Assembly: GCA_965372795.1 (NCBI GenBank) | Contig: CBDVDR010000002.1 | Span: 32,001 to 96,000 of the forward strand | Direction of reading: 5' to 3' | From: an uncultured bacterium | GTDB taxonomy: Bacteria > Zixibacteria > MSB-5A5 > GN15 > FEB-12 | Length of the DNA: 64,000 nt | Part shown: in pieces, positions 4,382-19,771 of the stretch | Layout: every line of letters starts with the position of its first letter | How positions within the stretch are numbered: position 1 is the stretch's first letter | Translations under genes and position numbers: made by a program | The notes under the pieces: generated by a model | Seen by the model: only the letters and a program-made list of their open reading frames with translations | The model's database searches: none | Told to the model about the DNA's origin: nothing

Positions 4382-5404
4382 GTGAAATATTTTTTAATAC
4401 TGATATTGGTTATTTTATCAACTGCGGTTGTATCAGCTCAGACAGACTCCGCATTAGTCAGGATTCGAACCGATACCGATAGTACTAAAATCCAGATAAA
4501 TAATCAAGATGTCTTAGAAGATTCTTATGGAAACACTCTTGTTAAGAATTCCTGGTTTATTCTAAATTTACCGATTGAGACTTATAATTTAAAAATTACA
4601 TCATTAAACTATAACCCAATAGACTCAACCATTACTCTTATAAAGGGAGAGATCTATACTTTTGACATTAAGTTTAAAGAAATAATATATGAAGATACTA
4701 CGGACTATTATGAAAGTTTAACTGAGGACTTTGAAGTTGTTAAATTAGTTGTTCAATCAGAACCGGATAGCTGTTCATTTGTCATTGAACAAAACACAAT
4801 TGAAAAATCAACACCTTTTGAATTATTTTTTAGACCGGGTGAATATTCTTTTCTTGCAACTAAAGAAGGCTATGAACCTTTAAAATCTACGATAAAAATT
4901 GAACAAAAGATTCCCCTGCTTGCCAATTTCATTCTCCGGGATTTTAAACCTGAAGAAATTATGCCTGAATCGTTAGGTCTTAACTACATGTCTCAGCTGC
5001 CATTACTTAATGCTAAATCAGCCGATAATATTAAAGTTAAATATAACTCCTTAGCTGAATCCTTTGCCATTTTCCCGATGGCGCAGGGGATACTGGCAAG
5101 AATTGTCGTAGATAAATCTCAATATCGAATAGCTGAAACATTGATTATTTCCGGTGTGGGGCTAACTTTGGGCTCTTATTTTCTGGGTAAGTTTTTATAT
5201 AAAAAGAAAAAACAATATATTATTGATGAAAATATACGCAGAGAATCAGATAACGCTATGGCGGACGAAAATAATAGGCAAGTTGACATGCAAGTAAATG
5301 ATGAAAATATTGCCCGTTTAAAAGCTTGGCAGAGAAAGAACCGGAATAAGGGCCAAGTAGTAATTGAAACCGACTATTCTGAACCAGCCTTAGGAATTCA
5401 ATAG
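4382..5404 (+). CDS. Secreted/membrane PEGA-domain protein
   Basis: Signal peptide; PEGA-like segment LVVQSEPDSC...STPFELFFRPGEYSFLATKEGYEP; C-terminal hydrophobic helices. Confidence 0.65.
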   Translation: MKYFLILILVILSTAVVSAQTDSALVRIRTDTDSTKIQINNQDVLEDSYGNTLVKNSWFILNLPIETYNLKITSLNYNPIDSTITLIKGEIYTFDIKFKEIIYEDTTDYYESLTEDFEVVKLVVQSEPDSCSFVIEQNTIEKSTPFELFFRPGEYSFLATKEGYEPLKSTIKIEQKIPLLANFILRDFKPEEIMPESLGLNYMSQLPLLNAKSADNIKVKYNSLAESFAIFPMAQGILARIVVDKSQYRIAETLIISGVGLTLGSYFLGKFLYKKKKQYIIDENIRRESDNAMADENNRQVDMQVNDENIARLKAWQRKNRNKGQVVIETDYSEPALGIQ

Positions 5405-5652
5405 TAAAATTTATCTGATTATCTCTTTGATTAATTTCATTGTAAAGCTTCTCTTGAATTTCAAATAAATACTAAAACGGTGTTATTTCCTGACTGGGTA
5501 AAGGCTGTTTATCTGTTGGATTTTTATACATATAGTCTTATATCCTTTATTAATATATCAAATTATCTCAACTAATATTACAAATACCCGAAAAAATCAT
5601 TAGTTAATGAATTTATTAAATGAATTGATAATCAATCAACAAAGGAGTTACG

Positions 5653-6219
5653 ATGCGTAAACCATTATCATCAACAATCTTAGTAGTAATTATGGTTCTG
5701 TTGGCCGCGGGTACTATCTGGTCTGCAGCAGATTTAAATACTGAATATTTGATGAAGGTCGGTGATTATTTTGAAGTAAGCTATGATGATGTCGATGCTA
5801 TTGCCTCGGGCAATATTGCCATTGAAGAAGTTCCAACGGTATTTTTTATGGCTCAACTTTCCGATAAATCACCAGAATATGTTCTTAATGCCTATGAAAT
5901 TAGTAATAGCTGGGCTTCATATATGACTTTTCATAGAATTCATCCATCTGAAGTAATGGTTAAAATTTACAATTTTAACACTCCTGAGTGTAAGGCTGTT
6001 AAAAGCAAAATTAAAAATAGACCTCTTAAATCAGTCAAATTTGATAACCAGGATATAAATCTTATGGTTAATTGTAGAATGATTGCTGAAACAAAGAATA
6101 TTGAATATTCAGAAGTTATAAATAAGAGAAATAATATTCAAGGAAATACAACTTCATTTGTAGAAATTAATCATATGTCTATTGATCAAAGTGAACTTGC
6201 AACATCAGATTCAAAATAA
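5653..6219 (+). CDS. Secreted hypothetical protein
   Basis: AAGGAG RBS, signal peptide, followed by a terminator. Confidence 0.75.
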   Translation: MRKPLSSTILVVIMVLLAAGTIWSAADLNTEYLMKVGDYFEVSYDDVDAIASGNIAIEEVPTVFFMAQLSDKSPEYVLNAYEISNSWASYMTFHRIHPSEVMVKIYNFNTPECKAVKSKIKNRPLKSVKFDNQDINLMVNCRMIAETKNIEYSEVINKRNNIQGNTTSFVEINHMSIDQSELATSDSK

Positions 6220-6235
6220 GAAATCTACATATTTC

Positions 6236-6267
6236 AAAAAGCCATCTCAAACAGGTGGCTTTTTTTT
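6236..6267 (+). terminator. Intrinsic terminator
   Basis: AAAAAGCCATCT-caaac-AGGTGGCTTTTTTTT hairpin with T-tract. Confidence 0.75.
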
Positions 6268-6543
6268 ATAACTAAAATAACCTCTTTTTTAACCCCCCAA
6301 AAAAATACCCTTATAAACCAAGTCTTTATGTAATAAGTATAGGATACATCCTACACTCCTTGGATTATATCTATTCGGCAAAATCAGATTGAAAATTGGG
6401 TATATGTTGTGGCACAATGAATTACACAAATCGCAGCAATGGCACATCCTTTGCTTTTTTGAATACTGAAACATAAAATATTTCGGATTAAATTGTAGAA
6501 TTTATGCGAAATCAACGTAGAATAGATAGCTTGTGAGGGCTGC

Positions 6544-7137
6544 ATGAAAACTTTTGTGAAAATATTGGTGCCGTTAGTTGTATTATCGTTGTTGATCTTA
6601 CATACAATAGCTATTAGTTCAATTGGAATAAAGAGTATTCCTATGAATTCCAATGATGTCATTATTGACTGTGAAAACTGCCATAATGAGATAATAACTT
6701 CAGTAAATTCTCATTTTATTGAATCATCAAATGATTGTCAATTCTGCCATATAGTTAATACTAACACAACCGATCATCAGATTTTATCAATCACGGATAA
6801 TGACGTTTGCGTTGCCTGTCATGTTGAGCAGAGTGAAATGAATTCAAGTGATGTGCACAGTTCTGTGTATTGTATGGATTGTCATGATCCTCATGGATCT
6901 AATGAAGATTATATGTTCACAAAAAATGTTGTTCAACTTTGTAGTGAGAATTGCCATACTAAAGAAGAACAAGGAAACTCACATGCCGTTGGCGGTGATC
7001 TTATTGATGAAAGAACCGGACAACAATTAACTTGTATCTCAACTTGTCATAATCTACATAGTCCTAAAGAAGATAAATTACTTCAATACACGGTAACAAA
7101 TGTTTGTTACGAATGTCATCAGGAAATGTATGAATAG
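6544..7137 (+). CDS. Multiheme cytochrome c (5 CXXCH + 2 CX3CH)
   Basis: CENCH, CQFCH, CVACH, CMDCH, CYECH plus CSENCH and CISTCH; N-terminal signal/anchor. Confidence 0.9.
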   Translation: MKTFVKILVPLVVLSLLILHTIAISSIGIKSIPMNSNDVIIDCENCHNEIITSVNSHFIESSNDCQFCHIVNTNTTDHQILSITDNDVCVACHVEQSEMNSSDVHSSVYCMDCHDPHGSNEDYMFTKNVVQLCSENCHTKEEQGNSHAVGGDLIDERTGQQLTCISTCHNLHSPKEDKLLQYTVTNVCYECHQEMYE

Positions 7138-7161
7138 TAGAGTTGATTATTAAAATCAGTA

Positions 7162-7212
7162 AAAAAGCAGTGCTATTGTTTTAGATTAGTAAACAATAGT
7201 ACTGCTTTTTTT
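7162..7212. terminator. Bidirectional intrinsic terminator
   Basis: AAAAAAGCAGTGCTATTGTTT...AAACAATAGTACTGCTTTTTTT between convergent cytochrome genes. Confidence 0.8.
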
Positions 7213-7254
7213 ATTTTAAGAATTTATATAAATTATAAACTGTCAAATAGTAAA

Positions 7255-8319
7255 CTATTTTACGTATTTCCCCGGGCTATGTGAATAATTATGACAGGTT
7301 AAATAACATTCACCCGCATTTGTACCGGTTGAGTTAAATTGAATTTTACGAGTGACATCATCCAAAGAAACAGCTTCGGGATTAAAATTTATTAAATACT
7401 TATTTTTCTCAGAACTATGAGAAGCATGACAGGTAAAGCAAGAGGTTCCTTTGCGGTTTTTTATCGGATCACCTACTATATGTTCTTTATGGAGCGGAAA
7501 ACTTGCATTTGAAAGGATACTTGTTCTGCTGTGACAGGAATAACAAAACTCATAAGCATAATTATTTTCGTTGTTATATACGTCCGTATCATAGTTTCCG
7601 GTTAGTAAATGCTTATGTTTGGAACCATGAGGTCCTTTGGGACCATCTTTATCATCATTACTGTGGCAATCGGAGCATTTCATGCTATTGTCAAAGTCTA
7701 AAGATAACTTAAGACTGGCTGATTTATTGTTTGAAATAGCTGTTGTAACCGGATGCTGAGACTGGTTTCTTAACGCAAAAACTTGTGAATAGTTTTTTGA
7801 TCTGCTCTTGATATTAACACTTGTGCCGTGGCATTTTAAACAAACCTCAAATTCCTTTGATGATTTTGTAATATATTGATTGGACAAGCTATAACCTTGA
7901 ACATCATAAGTTTTCTCACCAGTTGTAATTCGTTGATGAGGATTATGACAATCAACACATTCGGCATGATTAATCATTGATGAAGAAAGCCCTGGTAATC
8001 TTTCAGAAGATGAATGGCCGGAACCTCTTTTAACCGGATGGCGATAAAGTTTATTGAATTCCTTTTCCAAATCTGCAAGATCAGCTTGTTGAGCCAATTT
8101 CCCCGATGATTTCATTGAGGCGCGTTTACTGTCTGAACCATGACATTGGTAGCAAGCTTTCTCTTCCGGATGAGTTAACATCGGCTCACCCTTTAACCCA
8201 TGACCAACATGACAGGAACCGCACTCTTCGGGAAGGAGGTAATTGTCAACATGTGCCAATAAACTGCCTATTGATAAAAAGGCGAGGGTGAAAGTTAATA
8301 TGTATATTATTTTTTTCAT
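7255..8319 (-). CDS. Multiheme cytochrome c (7 CXXCH + 1 CX3CH)
   Basis: Signal peptide; CGSCH, CYQCH, CVDCH, CLKCH, CSDCH, CYSCH, CFTCH, CYLTCH; GPKGPHGS motif. Confidence 0.9.
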   Translation of the reverse strand: MKKIIYILTFTLAFLSIGSLLAHVDNYLLPEECGSCHVGHGLKGEPMLTHPEEKACYQCHGSDSKRASMKSSGKLAQQADLADLEKEFNKLYRHPVKRGSGHSSSERLPGLSSSMINHAECVDCHNPHQRITTGEKTYDVQGYSLSNQYITKSSKEFEVCLKCHGTSVNIKSRSKNYSQVFALRNQSQHPVTTAISNNKSASLKLSLDFDNSMKCSDCHSNDDKDGPKGPHGSKHKHLLTGNYDTDVYNNENNYAYEFCYSCHSRTSILSNASFPLHKEHIVGDPIKNRKGTSCFTCHASHSSEKNKYLINFNPEAVSLDDVTRKIQFNSTGTNAGECYLTCHNYSHSPGKYVK

Positions 8320-8327
8320 CTCTTTTC

Positions 8328-8990
8328 CTAAAACTTATGGCATGTTTTACAGACTTCACTGAATGTTGCTTTTCGCCAAAAAGGATATTTTGCTGATTTG
8401 GAATCATCATGAGGGTCGTGGCAGGAGGTGCACTGGACATAACCGTTATAGTCAACCCCAACTGATTTATTACCACTCGGTAATGGCCACTTAAGATGAC
8501 TGCTCGATAAAGCAACCTTCTGATCAAACTTAACTGACACTGGATGAGTCCCGGTCAGATCAGTTCCGATATGACCTTTACTTGTTACAGGGATTTCACC
8601 TGAGGAACCGACGTTATTCATAGGTATTGAAGTTGCTCGGTTGTGGATTGCACCAACAGCAATAGTGCCATCATGACAGGAAAGACACAATTTTGTTGAA
8701 CCATTCGGCTGTTCGGCTCTGCTTTTCATGGTTGATCGTTTATAGGTTTGGAATTTCCCCGTAGTTGTTGTTTTGTGATTCCAGAGAGGACCTTCTGTAG
8801 ATGCGTTATGACTGCTGTGGCAGAAAATACAAATACGAGTCTCGGTTGGTGACTTTATATCACCTTTGCCGGAGACTGATAAATTGTGTCGACTATCTTT
8901 AATTGCACCACTACCTTCAGAACTATTAGATGTCTCTGACACCAATAGGAATGAAAAAAGAAGGAGTAATATAACTAACTTAATCCTCAT
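8328..8990 (-). CDS. OmcE-like tetraheme cytochrome c
   Basis: IKDSRHNLS...ICIFCHSSHNA...PLWNH...LCLSCHDGT...GTDLTGTHPV...VQCTSCHDPHD...PF...CKTCH follows the Geobacter OmcE motif order as I recall it. Confidence 0.8.
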   Translation of the reverse strand: MRIKLVILLLLFSFLLVSETSNSSEGSGAIKDSRHNLSVSGKGDIKSPTETRICIFCHSSHNASTEGPLWNHKTTTTGKFQTYKRSTMKSRAEQPNGSTKLCLSCHDGTIAVGAIHNRATSIPMNNVGSSGEIPVTSKGHIGTDLTGTHPVSVKFDQKVALSSSHLKWPLPSGNKSVGVDYNGYVQCTSCHDPHDDSKSAKYPFWRKATFSEVCKTCHKF

Positions 8991-9999
8991 TGGGACCTCC
9001 TAAAAAATGAAGGATTTGGATTCGGTCATTATATGTATCAGCAATATATACTGTATCATTATTTATTGCAAGACCAGATGGGGAATAAAACTGTCCGGCT
9101 TCATTTCCAACTGAACCGACAACAAGTAAAAAGCGACCGGTAGAATCAAATATTTGCATATTGTCAAATAGATTGTCTACTACATAGATATTACCTTCGC
9201 TATCAGTAGCAACACCTTTGACCCGTGCAAAAGTTCCGGGACCATCACCTTCTTCACCAAATGCTGAAATAAAATTTCCGTCTGAATCAAATCTCTTAAT
9301 TTTATAATTTAATGCATCGTTTACTAATATATTATTGTCCCGAGCAGTAGCAACATAAGTAGGGAAGTGGAATCGGTCTTCAATTGCTAAATCGTTTGAC
9401 ACCACCCGTATCAATTTACCATCAAAATCATAAATTTTTAAATCATGATCGCCCGTATCAATTATATAAATAAGTTTCTTATCTGAATTGGCTGATATCC
9501 CGGTAGGTCTTGATAACCCTTCTGTTATAAACGGTTTGACTTTGCCATTCTCAAATTTATAAACTGCTTTATTCTCACTGTCTGTTATAAATATAACATC
9601 GTCATTACCTTGACATAAACAGACCGGAAAACTAAAAGGACTATTCTTGTCATAATATTTCTTGTAACTGTTATCAGATAATTTAATTTCAATCAAATAA
9701 GGAATTCCCTGACAGGTAAGATACATCTTGTCCTTGACTACAATTACATCATACGGCAAACTAATTATATCTTTTTCGCTGCGACCACTAAGAAAGCTTT
9801 TAACTTTTGAAAAAAAACCGCTTCCTACTCGAAGGTCTTTACAAGCAATCTCTCCGACATATTCTATACGAGGCTCATCAGGATGAGGTGGCCAATACAA
9901 CTTCTGTGCAATTACACTCACTGATAGCATTATTATAACAAAAAGAGTCATTGTAAATCGTATGTTAATTAACTTATTCATATGTTTATTATATACCAA
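8980..9999 (-). CDS. NHL-repeat 6-bladed beta-propeller protein
   Basis: Signal peptide; WPPHPDEPRIEYV N-motif; FGEEGDGPGTF, GNEAGQFYSPSGLAI, VYIADTYNDRIQI. Confidence 0.85.
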   Translation of the reverse strand: MVYNKHMNKLINIRFTMTLFVIIMLSVSVIAQKLYWPPHPDEPRIEYVGEIACKDLRVGSGFFSKVKSFLSGRSEKDIISLPYDVIVVKDKMYLTCQGIPYLIEIKLSDNSYKKYYDKNSPFSFPVCLCQGNDDVIFITDSENKAVYKFENGKVKPFITEGLSRPTGISANSDKKLIYIIDTGDHDLKIYDFDGKLIRVVSNDLAIEDRFHFPTYVATARDNNILVNDALNYKIKRFDSDGNFISAFGEEGDGPGTFARVKGVATDSEGNIYVVDNLFDNMQIFDSTGRFLLVVGSVGNEAGQFYSPSGLAINNDTVYIADTYNDRIQILHFLGGPNED

Positions 10000-12130
10000 A
10001 TTTCCTTGTTATACTTATAGATAATTCATAAAACTTATAAGTGTCAAGAATGAGTTCATCTGTTGAAAAAATATGAGATATTGTTAAATCAATTTGGTTA
10101 TATCTATAAGAAATCTCTGATTCTGTTTTAAAAGAAGCTTGTCTCGGCATTCCTTCCAAATCTCTATACTGTTTAATTATTTCTGTTGAGAATGGAAATT
10201 TTATATAAGGAATATAAGTGTCCAGCTTAAAAAGAATACCTGTCGTTTTACTCCCTTTGGCATTTGCCAAAGAGAAATTAGTCGAAAATTCAACGTCTTT
10301 AAATTGACTTGAATTATAATTTATAGATATTGTATTTGAATATTCAGTCGGTGTAACTTTTGTTACTAGTACAGATTGTTGAGTAATAGTATCTCGTTCT
10401 TCCGTATCAAAATCACCTGTGAATCTCCAGGTATGTGAAGTAGATAAAGAAATAGTGTGTTTTTCCGAAAGATCTTTTCGGAAAAGAAAATCCCATAATA
10501 CTTGTGAGCTGGTTTTTGTACTATTATTTTCAGTAGTTTTTGTAAATACATGACCTAATTTTGTGGATACTTCACCCAGTAACCGATTATCTGTTTGGCT
10601 GATCTCAAAAGATGAGTTCATCGTTAATCCTTCAGATTCACTTTTGAGAGTGTCGCCAATCTTTTCTCTGGAATCTATTTTTATAGAACTCATCGGAACG
10701 AATTTTAATCTCCCAGACGATAATTCCATTCGATTTCTTAATTCATAACTTTTATTTGTCGCTTCATCTCTACCAAACCCTGTTTTGTTCTGTTGAGATA
10801 ATTCGCCATTAAAAGATATATGGTGTTTATATCTTTCTGAAGGTAATGCAAGTTTCGCAATATATTTTGTGTTGTCAGTTTCAATTTTAATTCCATCAGT
10901 AGTTTCTAATACATCCAGTTTATAATCATGGCTGACACTTCCGATAAGACCTTTTCTTTGAATGAAATTTAGGGTTGTTAGGTTTTTCGAATTATCGGTT
11001 ATTAGTTTATCAATACCTCCGGTAATACTTTCTCTTGCAGTTTTTTCTGAGTTAATCACTATATCAAATTTCCTGGAAATTTGATATAATAGTGAATTTT
11101 TAAAACCATCTGATAATTCTTTTAAATGGGTGCTTGCACTGAAAAGGTCGATGTGGGAAAAATTTGTTTTAATTTTTAATTTTTTAGTTAAATAACTAAA
11201 ATCAATCATAGCTTCAGTATTATCATTGATAATATCATTTTTAACAGGGAACTTCTCAACATCAATATTTATTACATAATTTTTCTCATGATTCAAATTG
11301 ACACTTATTGAACTCTGCATATAGTTATGTAATGGAATCACATCAATAAAATGACTGCCTGAATCAAAAGTAATCGTAAAGGTAAACTCAGGTGGGATTA
11401 TCTCATTGAATGTACCCGAAATTATTCTTACTGAATCATCTTTTATTTTATTGTTAAATATTACCGATACAGTATTGGTAAAAATATCACCTGGAAGCTC
11501 TAATGATGATATAATTATTTTTCGATCTTCATCAAAATCATAATCATATGAATTATCGGTCTTTTGGTTATTGAATGAGGCATCAAGCGTTGCTCCACTG
11601 AATAATTTACTCGAAAAATACGTACCGTACTTCTCTTCATTGATTCTTCTCTTTTGTAAAATTGCAAGACCGGGGGTGAGAAGCTCAGTCGAAGATCGCT
11701 CTGATTCATTAAACTTTAGAGAGACATCTTTCATTTTGATATAGAAAAAACTCAATGGATATGATCGTTTTGGGAAAAAGATGATATTACCGCTAAAATT
11801 ATTTAATTCAGGCGATGAATATGAACCCAATTGTAAAGTGTTGGTTTTCATTGAAGTAAAAAAACCTTTTAACATTGCCGAAAGAAAATAATTGGCAAAA
11901 TTCTCTGTCTTTATACTCCCGCCATTAGCAAAACTTACATAATGGTTTGAAATAAATCTGGTCGCATTATTGGGAGAGTAGCTGTTGGCATTGGACTCAC
12001 TGGATGAATTAATTGCATGAAGATCAACACCGAGCGATCCCTTTATTCGATATTGGGCTGATATGTTTGCACTTAAAAGCAATAGAACAAATGAAATTGT
12101 CCAAAAATATGTTGAATTATTTACTCTCAA
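9989..12130 (-). CDS. Putative outer-membrane beta-barrel (porin of a porin-cytochrome conduit)
   Basis: Signal peptide; Ser/Thr/aromatic alternating beta-strand pattern; no Cys; C-terminal strand YELSISITRKFGI; embedded among cytochromes. Confidence 0.55.
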   Translation of the reverse strand: MRVNNSTYFWTISFVLLLLSANISAQYRIKGSLGVDLHAINSSSESNANSYSPNNATRFISNHYVSFANGGSIKTENFANYFLSAMLKGFFTSMKTNTLQLGSYSSPELNNFSGNIIFFPKRSYPLSFFYIKMKDVSLKFNESERSSTELLTPGLAILQKRRINEEKYGTYFSSKLFSGATLDASFNNQKTDNSYDYDFDEDRKIIISSLELPGDIFTNTVSVIFNNKIKDDSVRIISGTFNEIIPPEFTFTITFDSGSHFIDVIPLHNYMQSSISVNLNHEKNYVINIDVEKFPVKNDIINDNTEAMIDFSYLTKKLKIKTNFSHIDLFSASTHLKELSDGFKNSLLYQISRKFDIVINSEKTARESITGGIDKLITDNSKNLTTLNFIQRKGLIGSVSHDYKLDVLETTDGIKIETDNTKYIAKLALPSERYKHHISFNGELSQQNKTGFGRDEATNKSYELRNRMELSSGRLKFVPMSSIKIDSREKIGDTLKSESEGLTMNSSFEISQTDNRLLGEVSTKLGHVFTKTTENNSTKTSSQVLWDFLFRKDLSEKHTISLSTSHTWRFTGDFDTEERDTITQQSVLVTKVTPTEYSNTISINYNSSQFKDVEFSTNFSLANAKGSKTTGILFKLDTYIPYIKFPFSTEIIKQYRDLEGMPRQASFKTESEISYRYNQIDLTISHIFSTDELILDTYKFYELSISITRKFGI

Positions 12131-12139
12131 AAGAACTCT

Positions 12140-12808
12140 TTATTTGGTGTGACACCGTCCGCATAAAGCAGAGTTAGCATTTGATTCAATTAAAAAAGCC
12201 CCATAAGTATTATCATGAGGATCATGACAAGAATTACACTCAACATAAATACCCTCTGATAGAAGTTTATCAGGGTATAAAGCTGGATCTCCGGTTTTGG
12301 CGACGAAATCATCATCTTTAGTATGATCATAGATTATTCCAACAGGGTGGTCATCTTGTAAATTCGTTCCAACATAAGAATCCGAAGCTGCTGTCAACTT
12401 GCCGGCACCATCAAGGGCTGAGCCACCGGGAGTTCCATAAGAACCCGCACCTTGAGGTCCGGGTACATTATTTAGTGAATTAATCGCAATTGTTCCATCA
12501 TGACAAGTCAAACAAACCAAAGAACCGTTATTTGGCTGCAAGGTTTGAGACATGTCTATCGAAGGAGAATCATACATATCATAAGTTTGACCAGAATTTG
12601 TATGATTCCACAATGGGGCAGGGTCTGTCACATCGGCATTATGAGCAGTATGACAGAAGGAGCAAACCCGTCGAGTACCATAGAAAAATGCGTTTGGACT
12701 ATAAGTTGCAGATGTGAAATTATGCTTGGTCTCTCTGACACCAGCCATTGAAATTCCACTGCCAATAACTATACTTGCTATTATTAGTAAGATTATAAGT
12801 TTTTTCAT
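12140..12808 (-). CDS. OmcE-like tetraheme cytochrome c
   Basis: VRETKHNF...VCSFCHTAHNA...PLWNH...SLVCLTCHDGT...GTNLQDDHPVG...VECNSCHDPHDN...FL...SALCGRCHTK. Confidence 0.85.
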   Translation of the reverse strand: MKKLIILLIIASIVIGSGISMAGVRETKHNFTSATYSPNAFFYGTRRVCSFCHTAHNADVTDPAPLWNHTNSGQTYDMYDSPSIDMSQTLQPNNGSLVCLTCHDGTIAINSLNNVPGPQGAGSYGTPGGSALDGAGKLTAASDSYVGTNLQDDHPVGIIYDHTKDDDFVAKTGDPALYPDKLLSEGIYVECNSCHDPHDNTYGAFLIESNANSALCGRCHTK

Positions 12809-12818
12809 AATATATTCC

Positions 12819-13895
12819 TTAATTGACTAATCCTTCTTGTCCCAGATATTGAAATACTTGAACTCTTCTATTTATTGAGTCACCAATATATATATAATTC
12901 TCATCATCAATTGAAATACCGGCAGGAAGCCTGAATTCACCAGGACGCATACCTGCTTGACCAAATTTTAACAATACTCTCCCGATGTTATCGAATATTA
13001 TGACTTTATTTCTAACAGCATCTGTAATGTAAATATTATTATCAGAATCTATAGAGATATCTCTTGGACGTACCATTGGTCCGGGAGAAGTCTCTGTGGA
13101 TCCAAAATTAAATAAAAAATTACCGTCTATATCAAACACTTGAACTGAAAAATGAAAAGAATCAACGACATATACTGAATCACCCTTATTAATTGCTACC
13201 GTCAATGGAAAATGAAATTCTCCAAGTTCATCACCACGATGCCCAAACTCTTTTATAAATTTGCCATCTTTAGTAAAGATTTTTACTTTATGATCCTGTG
13301 AATCTACAATAAACATTTTGTCTTCATTCTTAGTAAATGTAATTCCTACCGGTCCTTTAAAATCTTCTGCCGAGCCGATAAAATGAGAAAATTTGTAATC
13401 AGGTGTGAAAACTACTACTCTTTTTAATTTTGTGTCACTCACATAAATTAGCCCATTTCTGTCCAATTTTACATAAACTGGTTCGGCAAGATACCCTTGG
13501 CTTCCTAAAGAATTGAAAAACTTAGAGGTCCCTTTTTCAAAATCCAGGACTAAAATACCCTTTGTAGCTGTATCGGCAATAAATAACTTAGATTTACCAT
13601 CGTAGGTGACACCGTAAGGCTTTTGTATCAAATGAGTTGTACCTCTTCCTAAAAAGAAGTCTCGAACTTTTCCGAAAAATGACCTTTTCATATTTTCACT
13701 GCCATAAATCGTTTTGACATATTTGATCTTGGGAGTTAATGGAGCTTTTGGCCAGTAGATTTCTTCCACAGGTCGGGGAGGTTTACTACAACTGCACAAC
13801 AATAAAATCATCAATGATATTACTATATAAATAATTCTCATAGATTTCATATATCTCATATATCTCATAATAAATCCATATGACAACCTAAACAA
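12819..13895 (-). CDS. NHL-repeat lipoprotein
   Basis: Lipobox-like LLLCSC; WPKAPLTPKIKYV; multiple NHL repeats. The true start is probably at 13868 or later. Confidence 0.85.
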   Translation of the reverse strand: MFRLSYGFIMRYMRYMKSMRIIYIVISLMILLLCSCSKPPRPVEEIYWPKAPLTPKIKYVKTIYGSENMKRSFFGKVRDFFLGRGTTHLIQKPYGVTYDGKSKLFIADTATKGILVLDFEKGTSKFFNSLGSQGYLAEPVYVKLDRNGLIYVSDTKLKRVVVFTPDYKFSHFIGSAEDFKGPVGITFTKNEDKMFIVDSQDHKVKIFTKDGKFIKEFGHRGDELGEFHFPLTVAINKGDSVYVVDSFHFSVQVFDIDGNFLFNFGSTETSPGPMVRPRDISIDSDNNIYITDAVRNKVIIFDNIGRVLLKFGQAGMRPGEFRLPAGISIDDENYIYIGDSINRRVQVFQYLGQEGLVN

Positions 13896-14971
13896 ATTAA
13901 ATTATTGTCAGATTTAAGCATAAAAGGTTGTTTTGATGAATGTGGATTATGACAGGTCAGGCATTCTAATTTGCCCTCTTGGGATAATTGTAAATTACTT
14001 GATAATTCCTTTTTTGGGGCTACGTTAAACGGGTGAGAATGATCTTTTAAATCACCTTCAACTTTATGGCAGGATAAACAAATTATTTCAGAATCTGCTT
14101 TTAAAATCCATTCATTATTTGTTGAATGAGGATCATGACAGCCACCACAATTGCCTTCAATAAAAGGCTTATGAACTACTGTGGCGTTTACTTGTTTTTC
14201 AACATCTTCATGACACTCAAAACATAACATGTCTTCAGGAAGATTGAGGATATGTTCATTTTCCGATCCATGATGCGAATGGCAAATTAGACAACTGCCA
14301 CCAGCTATGGGACCATGAACATATTCCTTGTCAAATGATTTTATCTTATCTTCATGACACTTGAAACAGGGGTTCTTTGATTGAGTTTGCTCATCAACTA
14401 CTGCTTTCAAATTTGAACTAAGTTCATGACACAAAAAACACGTTTTATCATCTGCTTTTGTATGTTTGTCAAAATTATCTTTTAATGATATATGACAACT
14501 TGTACATGTTTTGGAATCATCAACTTTGTTCAAATTAGCGAAATCAATCTCATGGCATGCCAGACAACTTTGATCTACTTCCTGACTATGGAATGAATAA
14601 TTTGGATATAACCTTTTGTATTTACGCTCTATCAAAGGAGCATACATTACTTCAACAATTGAATATTTTGTTTCTGAGGAAGATTTCCCGCTGTAAGCTG
14701 GAATCAATTTTATTTCGTGTAATCCATATCCAAAATTAATCTGCTTATGAAAAAAACTGTCTTTTACTAATATGTTATCGTAAAGTTTCCCATTTAAAAA
14801 TATGTCAACAATTTGGGCATCGGTCTTTCCAACGATTATTATCTTATTCTGATTAATACTGATACGATTATTCGGTGCCAGAATCTCCAGAAGTTCAGAA
14901 GCCTCGGCAAAATTTAATAGATTAAAACTAATGATGATTGTTAGTAGTATATGTTTCAATTCAATTCTCAT
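13865..14971 (-). CDS. Decaheme cytochrome c with N-terminal Ig-like domain
   Basis: Signal peptide; 10 CXXCH in the C-terminal two-thirds; HGP/HKP and CHDPH doubled-CXXCH motifs. Confidence 0.9.
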   Translation of the reverse strand: MRIELKHILLTIIISFNLLNFAEASELLEILAPNNRISINQNKIIIVGKTDAQIVDIFLNGKLYDNILVKDSFFHKQINFGYGLHEIKLIPAYSGKSSSETKYSIVEVMYAPLIERKYKRLYPNYSFHSQEVDQSCLACHEIDFANLNKVDDSKTCTSCHISLKDNFDKHTKADDKTCFLCHELSSNLKAVVDEQTQSKNPCFKCHEDKIKSFDKEYVHGPIAGGSCLICHSHHGSENEHILNLPEDMLCFECHEDVEKQVNATVVHKPFIEGNCGGCHDPHSTNNEWILKADSEIICLSCHKVEGDLKDHSHPFNVAPKKELSSNLQLSQEGKLECLTCHNPHSSKQPFMLKSDNNLICLGCHMDLL

Positions 14972-14989
14972 TGTTTTAACTCTCTAATT

Positions 14990-15026
14990 AAAAAGGCAGA
15001 GCCGGGATTTTTACCCGACTCTGCCC
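14990..15026 (-). terminator. Intrinsic terminator/attenuator after the decaheme gene 15058..16278
   Basis: Minus strand GGCAGAGTCGGG-taaaaat-CCCGGCTCTGCC followed by TTTTT. Confidence 0.7.
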
Positions 15027-15057
15027 GAAATACATATTTAAACTATTTTAATATAGT

Positions 15058-16278
15058 TTAGTTAGCAGTATGACAACCACTACAAACGGCATCATTTGTA
15101 TTGTCAGCTCTCAAGAAAGGACGGACTGATCCGCCAAGTCTATGAACAGAGTGACATGTTTCACAAACGATGAAAGCATTGGTAGTTGCATAGTCTTTTG
15201 TTGCATCATAAGTTGCATCATTGATAGCACTTGCTACTGGATATGTAGCACCCAGAGTAGTTGGCATAGTGACATTAGCACTTGCATTCACCTGATCAAC
15301 TGGGTGAGAGTTACCACCAACTTCAGGAGCTGTTGTTGCAGCTGCTGTGTGACAAGTCTGACAGCCATCTGATTCTTCGTTAGCATAAACTTGCAAGAAG
15401 TTTACCGAAGGACCGGCAGCGGCATTAAAGCCTGTTGTATGGACAAAGTGACAGTCATTACAACCAGTCATAGCATCACCATGAGAACCTGTTCCACCAG
15501 TCATGTGTCTACCCGGTGCTGCACCAGCTTGGTTCAAGAAAGTACCATCTGGATAAGATGACGCACTTATACCTGTTGTATAAGTAGTTTGGGATTCATG
15601 ACAATCAACACAAGCACCACCCCAGGCATTTGCTGCATTATTCTGAACTGGAAGTAACCATTTACCGTCAGTTCCTTCAACACCACCGGTTTGTGCTACA
15701 ATAGTACCGGTACCGTGAACTACAGCGATTGAGTGACAATCACCACAGCCGATGTTTGCAGTTTGTGGATGGTTTTCAGCCTGAAGATAGTTGTTAGTAA
15801 GACTAACACCAGGGAAAGTACCATCATGACAATCAGCACATTCACCGGTACTTGCACCAAGAGTGGTCAAGAACTTACCATCAGTGTTATTGTTCTGAGA
15901 ATGAACATCATGACAAGATGCGTCATCTCCGGAACATGTTGCAAATGAAGTAGTATTTGCATGCAACTGGTTAGCACCTGTAAATGGCAATGAACCTGTT
16001 GTTACTTGGGCTACAATAGTACCATCATGACAGGATTGACACAGACCGGCAACGCCACCGGCTCCACCAACACTCATTGACCAAAGTTTGTCAGCGCCAG
16101 AAGTCGCTTTATGTGGAACATGGCAGGATGTACACAGATCAAGTGTACCAACAAAACTACCTGGCATTGTCATGCCAGTTCCGGCCAAGTCATGGGCGCC
16201 GCCATCAACGGCAGCATTTACACCTAAAGGCAGTGCTAACAAAGCAACACCGATAGCGATTGTAAATAGTTTTTTCAT
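15058..16278 (-). CDS. Secreted multiheme cytochrome c (9 CXXCH + CX6CH) with OmcE-like termini
   Basis: GGAGG RBS, signal peptide, Gly/Thr/Ala-rich; GGAHDL...LCTSCHVPH...LW...LCQSCHDGT and IVCETCHSVH...PFLR...VCSGCH; CSGDDASCH. Confidence 0.9.
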   Translation of the reverse strand: MKKLFTIAIGVALLALPLGVNAAVDGGAHDLAGTGMTMPGSFVGTLDLCTSCHVPHKATSGADKLWSMSVGGAGGVAGLCQSCHDGTIVAQVTTGSLPFTGANQLHANTTSFATCSGDDASCHDVHSQNNNTDGKFLTTLGASTGECADCHDGTFPGVSLTNNYLQAENHPQTANIGCGDCHSIAVVHGTGTIVAQTGGVEGTDGKWLLPVQNNAANAWGGACVDCHESQTTYTTGISASSYPDGTFLNQAGAAPGRHMTGGTGSHGDAMTGCNDCHFVHTTGFNAAAGPSVNFLQVYANEESDGCQTCHTAAATTAPEVGGNSHPVDQVNASANVTMPTTLGATYPVASAINDATYDATKDYATTNAFIVCETCHSVHRLGGSVRPFLRADNTNDAVCSGCHTAN

Positions 16279-16351
16279 ACCTTCATACCTCCGAAAGACG
16301 AAAAGTTAAAAATTAAGTGATTAGTTGTTATATATAATAAGTTCATTATAT

Positions 16352-17908
16352 CTATTCCGATTTAGTAATTACATATTTAAAGCCCATTACTTTATTACTT
16401 CTTTCACTCGTGACATAAATGATATTGTCTTTAACAATAATGCCTCGAGGTCCTGCAAGCTGCTGGCTCTCATCAGTAAAACTCTTAGTTGAGATAGCTA
16501 TCTTTGGTTCACCTTCCAGGTTGAAGGCTTGAATTGTTCCAGCCATAGCGTCAGTACACCAGTACAAACCGTCTGAAAAATTTACTCCGACCGCACGACC
16601 AAAGGTACCTACTGATGTGCCCATTCCGCCAAAATGTAATTGTTCTTCACCTTCAAAATTTGAAATAATAATTTGACCCATGATAGGATTTGTATGAACA
16701 AAAGTTTTATCATCAATTATCTGGACTCCATTTGGATAATGAGCAAGGAATGTTTCACCCATTTTATATTCTTTTTGAATTTGACCTTCAGAATCAATAA
16801 TTAGAATTCGATGGTTGCCAACATCTGAACATAAGATCCTTCCATCATCAAATACATCAATGCCGTTTGCTCTTAGCCCTTCCTTTTCACCTTCTGGTAC
16901 TTTGATCCTTTTAATGAATTTTCCTTCAGATGAGAATATTTGTATGTCTCTTGTAGAAACATCACTCACATAAACCTGATCTTTACTGTCTATTCCTATT
17001 GCAAATGGAATTAAAAATGCTCCGTTTGGTGGATCTTCTCGATCATCAGATTCCATTCCTGATCCAAAGACAAACTTTACTTGACCGGCATTATCAGTGC
17101 AAACGATTCTATGGTTCCCTTGATCAACAATATAAAAATCACCTTTAGAATTTACGGCAATCCCGGTAGGATTCATTAATGGCTTACCTTTTGCCTCAGT
17201 TACTTCAAAAACCAACTCAAGTTTTATTGAATCAAGATGAATCGTTGATTCTGCAGCTTCAAGTGCCACCCGTTCTTCTTCTGTAAGACCGAATTTTATT
17301 ACGGTCTCTTCTGAAGGATCACTTTCCTCAAATTCTTCATTTAAAGCACTTATGATATAATAATAGGATGTGCCACTAACAAGATTGTCAGCATCGGTAT
17401 AAGATACTCTCGAAACATTGCCGATTAATTCAAACCCTGAACCAGATGTTGTAGAACGACTAATATTATAAGCAATAGCTCCTTTTACTTTATCCCATAA
17501 AATCATTATTGCTGTTTCTCGATCATTTATTCTGGCACCTACTCCTTTAGGAGCAGAAAAAGCATCAATCTCTGCCGGCATTTTTACATCTTTTGTGTTT
17601 CCGGCTAATTCATTGCCATCAACAACCGCAGCAATTTTATAAGTAAAAACTACACCGGCTTGAAGCTTAGTATCAAAATAATTTGTTTTATCAGTAGTGC
17701 CTAATTTTGCAAATTCACTGTCAGCAGTTTTACGATATACAATGTACTCAGAAGCGTCAGCTACTTTCATCCATTTTAGTCCTACTTTTCCTTTGACAAA
17801 AAATGCTCCTATCAGCTTAGGACCTTCCTGGGCCTGAACTGATGAAAATGCAAATGCAGCTATGAAAATTAGAACTACTACTCTCAAAATAGGGGAGAGT
17901 CTCGTCAT
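16352..17908 (-). CDS. Secreted fibronectin-III + NHL-repeat protein
   Basis: Start moved to MTRLSP at 17908 (AGGAA RBS, signal peptide follows). Two FN3-like domains (LWDKVKGAIAYNISRS...YYYIISALN) followed by NHL repeats. Confidence 0.8.
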   Translation of the reverse strand: MTRLSPILRVVVLIFIAAFAFSSVQAQEGPKLIGAFFVKGKVGLKWMKVADASEYIVYRKTADSEFAKLGTTDKTNYFDTKLQAGVVFTYKIAAVVDGNELAGNTKDVKMPAEIDAFSAPKGVGARINDRETAIMILWDKVKGAIAYNISRSTTSGSGFELIGNVSRVSYTDADNLVSGTSYYYIISALNEEFEESDPSEETVIKFGLTEEERVALEAAESTIHLDSIKLELVFEVTEAKGKPLMNPTGIAVNSKGDFYIVDQGNHRIVCTDNAGQVKFVFGSGMESDDREDPPNGAFLIPFAIGIDSKDQVYVSDVSTRDIQIFSSEGKFIKRIKVPEGEKEGLRANGIDVFDDGRILCSDVGNHRILIIDSEGQIQKEYKMGETFLAHYPNGVQIIDDKTFVHTNPIMGQIIISNFEGEEQLHFGGMGTSVGTFGRAVGVNFSDGLYWCTDAMAGTIQAFNLEGEPKIAISTKSFTDESQQLAGPRGIIVKDNIIYVTSERSNKVMGFKYVITKSE

Positions 17909-17981
17909 GTTAAAATTCCTTTTTTTTGTAGTTTCATCTCGATCCTCAGTCATTTGAGAATCAAAAGTATTACTCCCGGTT

Positions 17982-17999
17982 TTGTTATAAAATTCACAA
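17982..17999. promoter_or_regulatory. Rex/CRP-like operator
   Basis: TTGTTATAAAATTCACAA, an 18-bp near-palindrome. Confidence 0.55.
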
Positions 18000-18123
18000 A
18001 GTGAAGTTCTCTTAATGTTTTTTAATTTAACGCGGTTCATTTCATTAAGCTTTACTTTTTGTTATTTCCATCGATCTAAATTGAAGAGTAAGAAGAGTAT
18101 CTATTAATAAAAGGAAGGCTGGC

Positions 18124-18141
18124 TTGTTATTGAATTCACAA
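18124..18141. promoter_or_regulatory. Rex/CRP-like operator
   Basis: TTGTTATTGAATTCACAA, an 18-bp near-palindrome. Confidence 0.55.
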
Positions 18142-18231
18142 GTCGAGCTGTTTAAAAATCCTTTTTTTCTTTCTATTCTTAACATCATCAACTGTCTTTT
18201 CTTTTCTTGCGATGACGAAACCATGACAATA

Positions 18232-18267
18232 TTGTGATAAATATAACAATATCGAGGGTTTTGTCAA
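18232..18267 (-). promoter_or_regulatory. Sigma70-like promoter (TTGACA-N16-TATATT) overlapped by a Rex/CRP-like palindrome
   Basis: TTGTGATAAATATAACAA at 18232-18249; -35 at 18267-18262. Confidence 0.65.
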
Positions 18268-18502
18268 TAGAGAAAATGGAATAAATTTAGTATATTTTAA
18301 TACTTATTTCTGGCAATTATATACAAAAATAAAGCAATAATCAATCCGATTATATGATAATTTAAATCCTCCTTATCTCCTTGTTATCAAAGAGTTAATG
18401 TCATTATCGGTCAACTCTTATCATTTATTGATAATAAAAAATAGGAATTGTTACTTTTTGTGCACTTTTTGGGAATTATTTCTGCTATTTGGGGAAATAG
18501 GA

Positions 18503-19771
18503 CTATTTAAGTAAAAATTCAGAATTGCTAACATGTGCAAAATGACAATCAATACATTTTGACTTTTCCAATTTTTCGGCTGGATGAGCTTCTGATGGCT
18601 CAATATCATGGCAATTCATACAAAGTTCACTATCTTGAAGCTCTTCTTTGGTCATTTCACCATCGTGACAGGACTCACAATCACCCTCTTCAAATGGCGG
18701 GTGATAATTGGTCTTGATTATAGCTGAATTCTCAGAACCATGAGGATCATGGCAATTTGAGCATTTTGAAGGAGTCAATGAAGCATGCTTCTCAAGAAAA
18801 TCATCATCTTCAATATCATGGCAACCCGTGCATAAATCTTCCTCAGGGTCGATTAAAACACCTGCATGAGGGTCATGACAGGCGGTACAATCATCATCTA
18901 ATACAGCAGCATGGGCAAATTCAAGTTCGAGTTTTTCTTCAATCTCGGAATGACATCCAAAACATAAATCCAGTTGAGTATCTTCTACTAAATGATTTCC
19001 ACCCTTTTTATAGTGAGGAGTATGGCAAACAAGACAGTCCTCATCTTCAAGAATTGTATGGACTTTTTCTGACTCCATTTTTTCTTTTATATCAGTATGA
19101 CAACTAAGGCAAAGATCAGTTGGTTCATCTTTTAAAATTGAACCATAATCGGAAGTATGCCCGGTGTGGCATTGTTCACAAGAATTCAAATCTTTTCCGG
19201 AGTGCATTTCGTTTGGTTGGAAATCAATGAAATCGGCATGACAATCAAGACAAATATACCCCGTAGGTAATAGTAACATCCCCGGGAATAATGACCCATG
19301 AGGGTTATGACAAGTCAGACAATTCTTTTTTGCGTATGGTTCATGAATATTTTTATCATCAGGGTCGGGCTCATCATGACATTCAAAACATAACTCAGGA
19401 ACTTTTTCCTTCAGAAAAAATTTATTCTTGGATGAATGAGGACTATGACAATTTGAACAGCCAATCTCATCCAAGATTGGATAGTGAATCTGATCTTCTT
19501 CTAACTCTATGATAGTTTCATGACAATTTGAGCAAAAATCTTTTGATTCACCTATAAATTCTATCTTATTTCGAAATTCATGAAATTGATGGCAGGCATA
19601 ACAATCATTATCTTTAAATGGCTTATGATTAATCTTGCCCTTTAATCTCTTGGCAATATTTTTATGACAATCAGTACAATTTTTCTCTTTATAACTTGTA
19701 ATAGCGGTAACCGGCAGCAAAGCAGCAACAACTATGTAAATCAAAAAGTATTTCAAAAAAATTCGTAACAT
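18503..19771 (-). CDS. 17-heme periplasmic cytochrome c (doubled-CXXCH repeats)
   Basis: Signal peptide; 17 CXXCH counted; acidic composition. Confidence 0.92.
   Translation of the reverse strand: MLRIFLKYFLIYIVVAALLPVTAITSYKEKNCTDCHKNIAKRLKGKINHKPFKDNDCYACHQFHEFRNKIEFIGESKDFCSNCHETIIELEEDQIHYPILDEIGCSNCHSPHSSKNKFFLKEKVPELCFECHDEPDPDDKNIHEPYAKKNCLTCHNPHGSLFPGMLLLPTGYICLDCHADFIDFQPNEMHSGKDLNSCEQCHTGHTSDYGSILKDEPTDLCLSCHTDIKEKMESEKVHTILEDEDCLVCHTPHYKKGGNHLVEDTQLDLCFGCHSEIEEKLELEFAHAAVLDDDCTACHDPHAGVLIDPEEDLCTGCHDIEDDDFLEKHASLTPSKCSNCHDPHGSENSAIIKTNYHPPFEEGDCESCHDGEMTKEELQDSELCMNCHDIEPSEAHPAEKLEKSKCIDCHFAHVSNSEFLLK

Follow-up and report, generated by a model that had tools for sequence, protein, structure and literature searches.

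Described Cytochrome Wires and Related Gene Clusters

Solved structures of cytochrome wires exist for only a few organisms. It has been stated in print that how such wires are exported, how they start and end, and how they are joined to the cell are unknown. In the Desulfuromonadia, the minimal OmcE cluster comprises two multiheme cytochromes, two β-propeller lipoproteins, OmcE and a large barrel (bioRxiv 10.1101/2025.10.22.684050, section 8), and filament subunits are represented by the structures from G. sulfurreducens (7TFS) and D. soudanensis (9YUQ). In the solved OmcE filaments, the ligand set of a subunit includes a histidine that is given to the neighboring subunit, and the authors of the mBio paper on this family use four further conserved heme-ligating histidines as the criterion for OmcE, together with a filter for nanowire candidates that asks for genes of a barrel and of a propeller lipoprotein in the neighborhood.

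A second system, Uet (undecaheme electron transfer), has been described from Ca. Tenderia electrophaga and some Gallionella, where the uetA-J genes encode a tetraheme, a 28-strand barrel, two NHL proteins and an extracellular undecaheme, with a TPR protein nearby. [quoted passage not shown] NHL and multiheme genes also occur together in Desulfovibrio ferrophilus (DFE_448-451 and DFE_461-465) and in the occ cluster of Ca. Dechloromonas occultata, which encodes the 922-aa undecaheme OccP; in the accessible parts of these sources, the cytochromes are described as co-expressed with NHL propellers proposed to stabilize an outer-membrane complex, and OmcE-like subunits are not reported; the likeness to the present locus is one of description only. 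The OmcE and Uet clusters have been treated separately in the literature consulted: the Uet literature that was found does not mention OmcE, nor does the OmcE paper mention Uet.

Organization and Distribution of the Locus

The stretch of DNA analyzed here (the window, 64,000 nucleotides) contains nine closely packed genes, designated A to I, all on the minus strand between positions 7255 and 18040, and the ORF map agrees in this with the preliminary description of the region. The intergenic gaps from C to I range from -31 to +10 nt, with 73 nt between A and B and 86 nt between B and C. Six genes of the region, namely C, D, E, F, G and the upstream gene U17 (18503..19771, minus strand), which encodes a cytochrome with 17 CxxCH motifs, match the gene set of the Desulfuromonadia OmcE cluster. 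Since this set equals the published minimal OmcE cluster and also resembles Uet, it does not represent a new kind of gene set. The same canonical set was found in three related loci of another phylum (L085, L086 and L088), where it adjoins ResB and CcsB. The cluster in the window differs from that of the Desulfuromonadia in its phylum, in the additional genes A, B, H and I, and in having neither ResB/CcsB nor glycosyltransferase genes at its flanks. The order also differs, as here the barrel precedes the second propeller gene (NHL-OmcE-barrel-NHL), whereas in the canonical L086 and L088 it follows it (NHL-OmcE-NHL-barrel).

The order B to I is repeated in five related loci (L001, L002, L003, L005 and L006), which rules out a chance pattern; a sixth close relative, L004, lies on a 2.5 kb contig carrying only C, D and E. 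Gene A (16352..17908), described beforehand as an FN3-NHL protein and confirmed as such by Pfam (fn3, 1.3e-5; NHL, 1.4e-14), is probably secreted and has homologs with 38-40% identity in four of the five loci (all except L003); both A and B are confined to loci of the Zixibacteria type. The open reading frame of A extends to 18040; position 17908, with which the region of the preliminary description ends, is an internal ATG of A preceding a signal peptide. The conserved unit exceeds 7255..17908. On the upstream side, homologs of U17 with 44-47% identity occupy the same position in L005 and L006, and the same two loci also carry upstream homologs of two further minus-strand genes (19792..21843), one encoding a 283-aa protein with no Pfam match and the other a thioredoxin-fold protein (AhpC-TSA/Redoxin plus TPR in Pfam) that has no CxxC motif. 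At the other end, a displaced tail of the cluster consists of an NHL propeller that bears a sorting domain for type IX secretion (2326..3861, minus strand; Pfam NHL and Por_Secre_tail) and of a pentaheme (1619..2317, minus strand; Pfam Paired_CXXCH). In the window, the two are separated from I by a plus-strand block (4382..7137), while their homologs (31-41% identity for the NHL protein and 71-77% for the pentaheme) directly follow I in all five related loci.

The closest syntenic relatives are MAGs labeled Candidatus Zixiibacteriota, which bears out the earlier assignment to a different phylum: of the five phyla named in print for OmcE clusters Zixibacteria is not one, no paper mentioning both "Zixibacteria" and "OmcE" was found in the literature searched, and the phylum is thus without an earlier published link to OmcE. 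OmcE-like genes were present in 20 of the 201 genomes sampled from the phylum, including that of the window, in keeping with an accessory island. According to their record titles, the 80 related loci collected come from Zixibacteria, Bacteroidota, Ignavibacteria, Planctomycetota, Acidobacteriota, Nitrospirota, Calditrichota and others, which carries the OmcE gene set well past the five phyla named so far.

The OmcE-Family Tetraheme and the NHL Propellers

The product of E (12140..12808) has 222 aa and four CxxCH motifs, and thus has the size and heme number of an OmcE-type subunit (about 200-230 aa, four motifs). Its similarity to both solved subunits is essentially full-length (phmmer; 1.7e-27 to 9yuq_N over residues 2-222 and 4.1e-21 to 7tfs_A over residues 8-222), and its H29, H56, H154 and H198 align with histidines in both structures; among 50 relatives, H29, H154 and H198 are invariant and H56 is present in 48. 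Being flanked by D and F, that is, by a propeller-lipoprotein gene and a barrel gene, E also passes the filter of the mBio authors for nanowire candidates. The product of H (8328..8990) likewise carries four CxxCH motifs, is 31% identical to E, matches 7tfs_A at 2e-23 and 9yuq_N at 7e-19 (phmmer), and has all eight ligand histidines present in 49-50 of 50 relatives. The alignments thus identify E and H, both called OmcE-like tetrahemes beforehand, as true full-length OmcE homologs with every one of the eight predicted axial-ligand histidines retained.

Each of the two lies next to an NHL gene. D (12819..13895) and G (8980..9999) match the NHL and six-bladed propeller families of Pfam (D, NHL 4.2e-21 and DUF5128 5.1e-17; G, NHL 2.4e-22), are 30% identical to each other, and are paralogous propellers, each adjoining one OmcE-like gene. 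The reading of D as an NHL lipoprotein is favored by a lipobox-like LLCSC, which is replaced by a canonical GC lipobox in three relatives (L003, L005 and L006); G, correctly foreseen as an NHL protein, has a Sec signal and no lipobox in the genome of the window. In the canonical clusters, too, the stand-alone OmcE-like gene has NHL genes on its flanks, and 61 of the 69 H-type genes in the related loci are immediately preceded by an NHL gene, a pattern that fits the role in assembly or anchoring proposed for these propellers in the preliminary description.

H and I as Halves of One Cytochrome

It has to be noted that H does not behave as a stand-alone tetraheme across its relatives. In 61 of the 69 related loci, a single open reading frame of about 550-640 aa (about 570), with 10-12 CxxCH motifs and 11-12 hemes, combines the H-type and I-type domains, and the two are split in only eight loci. 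The reading of H as a second stand-alone filament subunit is rejected on account of these 61 fusions. The product of I (7255..8319), which carries its own signal peptide, is colinear with the C-terminal stretch of the fusions; H and I are thus the head and tail of one cytochrome, which most other phyla encode as one polypeptide with 11-12 hemes. The earlier assignment of I as an octaheme holds as to its hemes (seven CxxCH motifs and one CX3CH, the histidine of which is present in 38 of 40 relatives), with H and I together being a split form of a single cytochrome. In its AlphaFold2 model (pLDDT 77.7), I is best matched by chain A of the Mtr complex, 6r2q_A (Z 7.6, rmsd 5.0, 179 aligned residues, 27% identity; next best Z 4.9), where the alignment tool itself cautions that best Z values of 7-8 are typical of unrelated models, and Foldseek returned no match for I at E ≤ 1e-3.

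In architecture only, E, F, D/G and H+I correspond to the tetraheme, barrel, NHL proteins and undecaheme of Uet, with H and I taking the place of the undecaheme as separate genes in the window, and both clusters have a TPR protein in the vicinity. No Pfam families corresponding to the peptidylprolyl isomerase UetB, the c7 trihemes UetD/E/G or the cupredoxin UetF were found among window ORFs of at least 150 aa. Two gammaproteobacterial loci (L054 and L063) carry a tetraheme, NHL, barrel, NHL and a fused 11-heme protein, and four others (L084, L087, L089 and L090) carry NHL-tetraheme-multiheme triads, the multiheme being 36-39% identical to I, that adjoin type II/IV secretion genes and not a barrel. 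The order of Gmet_0556-0558 is that of G-H-I, and we read these four triads as being of the omcP/omcO type, going by gene order and the literature rather than by comparison with the named sequences. In our reading of the gene orders, the NHL-OmcP-OmcO genes would join the OmcE and Uet clusters as versions of one modular system.

The Barrel and the Other Multiheme Cytochromes

The preliminary description of 9989..12130 (F) as a β-barrel is upheld by AlphaFold2, Foldseek and VIA-align. The model (pLDDT 88.6, pTM 0.70) is all-β, with about 29 long strands (28-30 allowing for uncertainty in the count) and a small β-insert at residues 206-288, and F contains no cysteine; Foldseek gave 233 matches at E ≤ 1e-3, all of them outer-membrane barrels among the matches listed. 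With VIA-align, the longest alignment was to MtrB (6r2q_B; Z 18.5, 443 residues, model residues 34-710; Foldseek TM 0.41/0.45), at about 6% identity and with more strands in F than the 26 cited for MtrB, and TonB-dependent transporters scored Z 18-19, so that F fits MtrB no better than it fits these transporters. On these structural grounds, F is an outer-membrane barrel of very large size. In sequence, its family is a narrow one: only 70 relatives were found at E ≤ 1e-3 among 1.84 billion representatives, the F-family HMM hit five of the 80 loci strongly and four weakly, and no tblastn match was obtained at E ≤ 1e-4 in L084-L090, F showing no detectable sequence relationship to the barrels of the canonical clusters. 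The barrels in other phyla are therefore to be taken as positional equivalents, with homology unproven.

Among the remaining cytochromes, C (13865..14971), in agreement with its earlier description as a decaheme, has ten CxxCH motifs following a non-heme N-terminal domain. C is MtrA/DmsE-like in that it matches 6r2q_A (E 1.4e-11) and the NCBIfam DmsE family TIGR03508 (1.2e-28), for the latter with 100.3 bits and thus below the family cut-off of 192.2. C is also 24-28% identical to the 8-heme gene of the canonical loci L085, L086 and L088, and U17 is 26-28% identical to the 9-heme gene of the same loci, which marks U17 as the counterpart of their second multiheme gene. As compared with MtrCAB of Shewanella (6R2Q), chain A is thus matched by C in sequence and by I in structure and chain B by F in structure, but there is no MtrC-type lipoprotein decaheme here. 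B (15058..16278), which has no sequence match in the PDB, had been described as an OmcE-like decaheme, and this holds with the qualification that nine of its motifs are CxxCH and the count of ten depends on a non-canonical site (C115..C122-H123, CX6CH, or CX5CH in relatives) kept in 6/6 family members. Its OmcE-like N-terminal part is indicated by the match of the B family to the E family with hhalign (probability 99.7%, E 3.2e-25), the 78 aligned columns taking in the signal peptide together with the first two heme motifs.

Models of Electron Transfer

Taken together, these comparisons make it probable that we are dealing with an accessory island for extracellular electron transfer, of the OmcE/Uet kind, with its nearest syntenic relatives in Zixibacteria MAGs. 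In the model that we favor, periplasmic electrons would exit via the multiheme cytochromes U17 and C, reaching into or through the barrel F, and would pass at the surface to H+I and from there to polymerized E, B being a putative further OmcE-related surface cytochrome and the NHL propellers presumably holding or guiding the OmcE-like subunits during export and assembly.

This model may be contrasted with a porin-cytochrome conduit lacking any filament, in which C or I would serve as the wire within the barrel, while E, H+I and B would remain monomeric surface or periplasmic proteins. Such an arrangement would accord with the published Uet model, where UetA and UetJ figure as extracellular cytochromes within a porin complex and polymers are no more than a possibility, and with the remark of the mBio authors that OmcE-like tetrahemes are widespread and not all of them need form wires. 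We nevertheless consider it unlikely, as E retains the full OmcE ligand set, including the histidine that in the solved filaments is donated to the neighbor, and as its neighboring genes are those of the two organisms with solved filaments. A further reading, that the barrel is an ordinary transporter and the NHL proteins are enzymes, could appeal to the presence of Sec-type signal peptides only (in B, C, E, H and I) and to the weak matches of the NHL folds to Pfam enzyme families such as SGL and Arylesterase. It is rendered highly improbable by the homology of E and H to proven extracellular filaments, by the finding that F has no Pfam family and, in its model, no TonB-transporter plug, and by the conservation of the order across many phyla, a heme-free ORF of at least 480 aa (the positional barrel gene) preceding the NHL gene of the H-type cytochrome in 39 of 69 loci.

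With either architecture, electrons could flow outward, to minerals or electrodes, or inward, in electron uptake. An inward apparatus would draw electrons from Fe(II), from minerals or from partner cells and deliver them to the oxidases of the cell, as proposed for Uet, linked to cathode and iron oxidation, in the Tenderiales and Gallionella; the genome encodes three COX1-family (heme-copper-oxidase) proteins above the cut-off and has a match to bd oxidase, and genes of O2-dependent aromatic catabolism adjoin the cluster. Inward flow seems to us somewhat unlikely, in that the RuBisCO large subunit was not found in the genome, which is 98.65% complete, and those OmcE and OmcP/OmcO relatives for which genetic data exist function in Fe(III) oxide reduction. 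It has to be added that, with its oxidase genes, the genome does not resemble that of a strict anaerobe, and that multiheme wires, being reversible, could carry electrons in either direction.

A Candidate Terminal Unit

Within the favored model, a more specific role may be considered for H+I, namely that of the terminal unit of an OmcE-type wire. The OmcE-like head would dock onto the end of an E polymer like one more subunit, and the MtrA-like multiheme tail would link this end with F and with the cytochromes of the periplasm, with B possibly forming a matching unit at the far end, or tip. If true, this would account for the initiation or capping of the filament and for its electrical connection to the cell; we regard it as quite unlikely in this specific form. 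A complex prediction of H with two copies of E, with hemes omitted, lent it weak support, scoring 0.57 as compared with 0.07 for the best control. H and I are absent from all three canonical clusters (L085, L086 and L088), and H+I is thus not universal in OmcE systems. In most lineages, the cluster encodes a protein in which an OmcE-like head is joined to a multiheme tail, which provides a testable candidate for an anchor or cap. The OmcE structure paper predicted a "ninth histidine" for such an anchor and found none in OmcE operons. A histidine just past the head (H23 of I, which in the split form lies at the very start of mature I) is present in 39 of 40 relatives and could be a candidate for it.

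Gene content of the cluster

Nine open reading frames run uninterrupted along the minus strand from 18040 down to 7255 and encode an FN3-NHL protein (A), an OmcE-related decaheme cytochrome (B), an MtrA/DmsE-like decaheme (C), an NHL lipoprotein (D), an OmcE homolog (E), a large barrel (F), a second NHL protein (G), a second OmcE-like tetraheme (H) and an octaheme (I). The genes from C to I overlap or are spaced by at most 10 nt, with wider gaps of 73 nt between A and B and 86 nt between B and C. Nine CxxCH motifs are found in B, ten in C, four in each of E and H and seven in I, which carries one CX3CH in addition; the tenth heme site of B is of a non-canonical form (C115..C122-H123) that is present in 6/6 family members, and the eighth site of I is conserved among its relatives. 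Pfam assigns fn3 and NHL domains to A and six-bladed NHL propellers to D and G, with no Pfam family matching F. On the strength of the reading frames, heme motifs and Pfam results, the gene list of the preliminary description is confirmed. Its interpretation as an extracellular electron transfer apparatus is supported. Among the cluster proteins, no NCBIfam model other than a generic doubled-CXXCH domain scored above its cut-off, and an Rfam search of the whole window returned no family.

E aligns over its full length with the OmcE subunits of D. soudanensis (9yuq, 1.7e-27) and G. sulfurreducens (7tfs, 4.1e-21), and H matches the same two at 7e-19 and 2e-23, respectively, the identity between E and H being 31%. 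The hallmark of OmcE in print, namely four CxxCH motifs together with four additional histidines (mBio, PMC13712944), is retained by both proteins, and in alignments of 50 sequences the four extra histidines are kept in 48-50 relatives of E and in 49-50 of H, which bears out their initial assignment as OmcE-like tetrahemes. They are the only OmcE-like genes in the window's genome (3.35 Mb, 98.65% complete).

The β-barrel proposed from the sequence of F likewise stood up to structural comparison. A search of 1.84 billion representative proteins found only 70 relatives of F at E≤1e-3, and a confident AlphaFold2 model built from 37 of them (pLDDT 88.6, pTM 0.70) is all-β, with seven long strands, a small β-insert at residues 206-288 and then about 22 further long strands. 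Foldseek gave 233 matches at E≤1e-3, those shown being outer-membrane barrels (ushers, TonB-dependent transporters and MtrB), of which MtrB had the best TM-score (0.41/0.45). VIA-align gave Z of 18-19 for many barrels, and the longest alignment was again with MtrB (443 residues across model residues 34-710), at a Z of 18.5 that many other barrels equal. Together, the model and both searches identify F as a barrel of the outer membrane, and a very large one. A profile of the F family matched five of 80 related loci strongly and four weakly; homology of the barrels across phyla was dropped as a proposition, as this profile misses the barrels of most other loci.

Relation to the published OmcE cluster

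The smallest OmcE clusters of the Desulfuromonadia are described as always comprising two multiheme cytochromes, two β-propeller lipoproteins, OmcE and a large barrel (Petersen et al., bioRxiv 10.1101/2025.10.22.684050; mBio PMC13712944). All six parts are present here in a slightly different order, as the 17-heme cytochrome U17 (18503..19771, minus strand, upstream of A), C, D, E, G and F. In a comparison set of seven loci from genomes of one other phylum, three (L085, L086 and L088) hold the published set, adjoining ResB and CcsB and ahead of glycosyltransferase-sized genes. These three encode a 9-heme protein 26-28% identical to U17, an 8-heme protein 24-28% identical to C, one or more NHL propellers, an OmcE-like protein and a heme-free frame of 746-807 aa; the OmcE-like gene is flanked by an NHL gene on each side in L086 and L088, and only one NHL gene was detected in L085. 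The cluster is a variant of the known OmcE type, from a phylum that has not so far been associated with OmcE: homologs have been reported from five phyla, i.e. Thermodesulfobacteriota, Pseudomonadota, Aquificota, Campylobacterota and Nitrospirota (Petersen et al., PMC13712944), and a literature search found no paper naming Zixibacteria and OmcE together. In the window's phylum, OmcE-like genes occur in 20/201 sampled genomes (11/72 within the same family), usually in pairs, E with H, separated by about 4 kb, and in a few cases fused; in the other phylum sampled, they occur in 32/301 genomes, 22 of which have a frame of at least 430 aa as counted from the listed frames.

Zixibacteria genomes with annotated mtrAB and multiheme genes have been described (PMC9769843). 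C itself falls below the cut-off of the NCBIfam DmsE family and matches chain A of 6r2q, a PDB entry titled "Structure of the Mtr complex", at E 1.4e-11; we take this chain to be MtrA.

H and I as one cytochrome, split or fused

Scanning a genome collection with E yielded 80 related loci holding 130 OmcE-like frames, and in 61 of these the OmcE-like domain forms the N-terminus of a larger protein (about 550-640 aa, 10-12 CxxCH motifs), the remainder of which matches I in a colinear alignment. Judged from these sequences, H and I are a single gene in two pieces. The split form recurs in five Zixibacteria-type and three Acidobacteriota loci (L001, L002, L003, L005, L006, L019, L021 and L047), as well as in four loci (L084, L087, L089 and L090) from the second phylum sampled. 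That H and I are instead a frameshifted pseudogene was ruled out by the start, the ribosome-binding-like AGGAAAAGAG and the signal peptide that I has of its own, and is also countered by the recurrence of the same split across other loci. As a comparative result, this OmcE-headed cytochrome, split or fused, should be useful beyond the present locus.

A quick maximum-likelihood tree built from 128 domains groups the split forms with one fused form in a supported set of 10 rows (SH-aLRT 98) within the fused half, and places E in a Zixibacteria-type clade of seven rows (99). Support is weak (74) for the deepest division, which separates H-type from stand-alone domains, and seven of the fused domains are placed on the stand-alone side. 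The N-terminal motif TKHNLSxSGPG is common to the H-type domains, the stand-alone ones mostly having KHD[LF]. Of the 69 H-type genes, 61 have an NHL gene as their immediate upstream neighbor, the rest comprising five at contig ends, two without NHL and one left out; ahead of that NHL gene, a heme-free frame of at least 480 aa is found in 39/69.

The order G-H-I is that of Gmet_0556-0557-0558 in G. metallireducens, a species that produces OmcE in bundles. There, the NHL protein Gmet_0556 is described as linked to Fe(III) oxide reduction. Its neighbors Gmet_0557 (OmcP) and Gmet_0558 (OmcO) are reported to be needed for that process (PMC9070056); OmcE and OmcP are reported to form a single homolog group (PMC11492766). 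A further described system, from Ca. Tenderia electrophaga, is the uet cluster, with a tetraheme UetA, a 28-strand barrel UetC, the NHL proteins UetH/UetI and an extracellular undecaheme UetJ, in which UetA and UetJ were proposed to perhaps interact or polymerize (10.1101/2022.05.06.490989), and which has also been reported from Gallionella genomes (PMC10734462). OmcE is not named in either of these two papers, nor are Uet, Tenderia or undecahemes in the mBio OmcE paper (PMC13712944).

In L084, L087, L089 and L090 (from genomes G306, G339, G209 and G253), the triad of NHL protein, H-like tetraheme and I-like multiheme adjoins a type II/IV secretion set, which by Pfam consists in L087 of T2SSF, a T2SSE ATPase with MshEN, PilM, PilN, PilO and a secretin with TPR and cohesin domains. 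This adjacency hints at an export route other than the barrel for these cytochromes.

I had a best match of E 0.2 among PDB sequences, and its AlphaFold2 model is fair (pLDDT 77.7), with no Foldseek match at E≤0.001. A full VIA-align search placed 6r2q chain A first (Z 7.6, rmsd 5.0, 179 aligned residues, 27% identity), a Z of 7-8 being one that can arise by chance, followed by OcwA (Z 4.9) and a Carboxydothermus undecaheme (Z 4.7).

Proposed working of the system

In the arrangement we propose, the periplasmic multihemes U17 and C would pass electrons to or through F, with H+I and E located outside the cell, where E may polymerize as OmcE does, and the NHL propellers, each encoded next to one of the OmcE-like genes, would aid export or assembly. 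Electrons may flow either outward or inward. The genome encodes three COX1-family proteins above cut-off and one bd oxidase match; the RuBisCO large subunit was not found in this 98.65% complete assembly.

The discussion of the mBio paper seeks a tip protein and an OmcE-like "anchor" bearing a ninth histidine, and states that OmcE operons encode neither (PMC13712944). Candidates for such in-cluster anchor or tip proteins are H+I, in which an OmcE-like head is joined to a wire-like tail, and B, which has an OmcE-like N-terminal part (hhalign 99.7%) and six further hemes and had no match among PDB sequences at E≤10. Histidine counting was not decisive for a spare ligand in H+I: besides its 8 motif histidines, I has 8 others kept in at least 39/40 relatives and 3 more in 33-36/40, and H23, just past the head domain, is kept in 39/40, counts that do not prove it spare. 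Complex prediction of two copies of E with H (H scored, no hemes) gave 0.57, 0.55 and 0.57, with 0.07 for the best of three controls, at least 55% of contacts in agreement and a pLDDT of at least 80 for H, which amounts to weak support. The mark applied is reached by 116/157 solved complexes and 2/215 mismatched pairs, and scores up to 0.60 are those of only 18 of the 157 and of both passing mismatches. The score may stem from similarity alone, since OmcE filament structures have been solved and E and H are paralogs. The absence of H/I from the same locus in the three canonical OmcE clusters (L085, L086 and L088) argues against a universal role of H+I in OmcE systems; one genome of that other phylum has both an OmcE cluster and an H/I module, about 2.5 Mb apart.

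Genomic neighborhood

In L001, L002, L003, L005 and L006, I is followed by homologs of an NHL propeller with a type IX secretion sorting domain (2326..3861 in the window, 31-41% identity) and of a pentaheme cytochrome (1619..2317). No protein of the island is better conserved than the latter, which shares 71-77% identity with its relatives, compared with 60-64% in the case of E and H; its N-terminus weakly resembles NrfH. In the window, a plus-strand block (4382..7137) breaks the conserved order, lying between I and the NHL gene with the sorting domain; it encodes a protein with a PEGA domain, a 188-aa protein without a family match and a cytochrome carrying five CxxCH and two CX3CH motifs.

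Upstream, the window, L005 and L006 have in common U17, a 283-aa protein and a thioredoxin-fold/TPR protein. The last (20725..21843, AhpC-TSA/Redoxin) resembles cytochrome-maturation helpers; no CxxC motif occurs anywhere in its sequence, and it may therefore be redox-inactive. After two TPR proteins, a further multiheme cytochrome (22373..23671; 13 CxxCH and two longer motifs) follows, so that the cytochrome-rich region spans at least 1619..23671.

Adjoining this island, the segment 24103..35917 encodes pterin synthesis (GTP cyclohydrolase I, 6-pyruvoyl-tetrahydropterin synthase and a short-chain reductase), a biopterin-dependent aromatic amino acid hydroxylase beside the pterin genes, and a homogentisate pathway with a glyoxalase-fold dioxygenase, an HgmA-like protein, fumarylacetoacetase and an aminotransferase, the hydroxylase and homogentisate steps being O2-dependent. 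Homogentisate-derived melanin can serve as an electron shuttle in other bacteria. Further along lies a prophage-like block on the plus strand (36181..49225), in which several frames of no known family accompany a terminase large-subunit N-terminal domain (37965..38972, plus strand) and a phage capsid family protein (42959..44062, plus strand).
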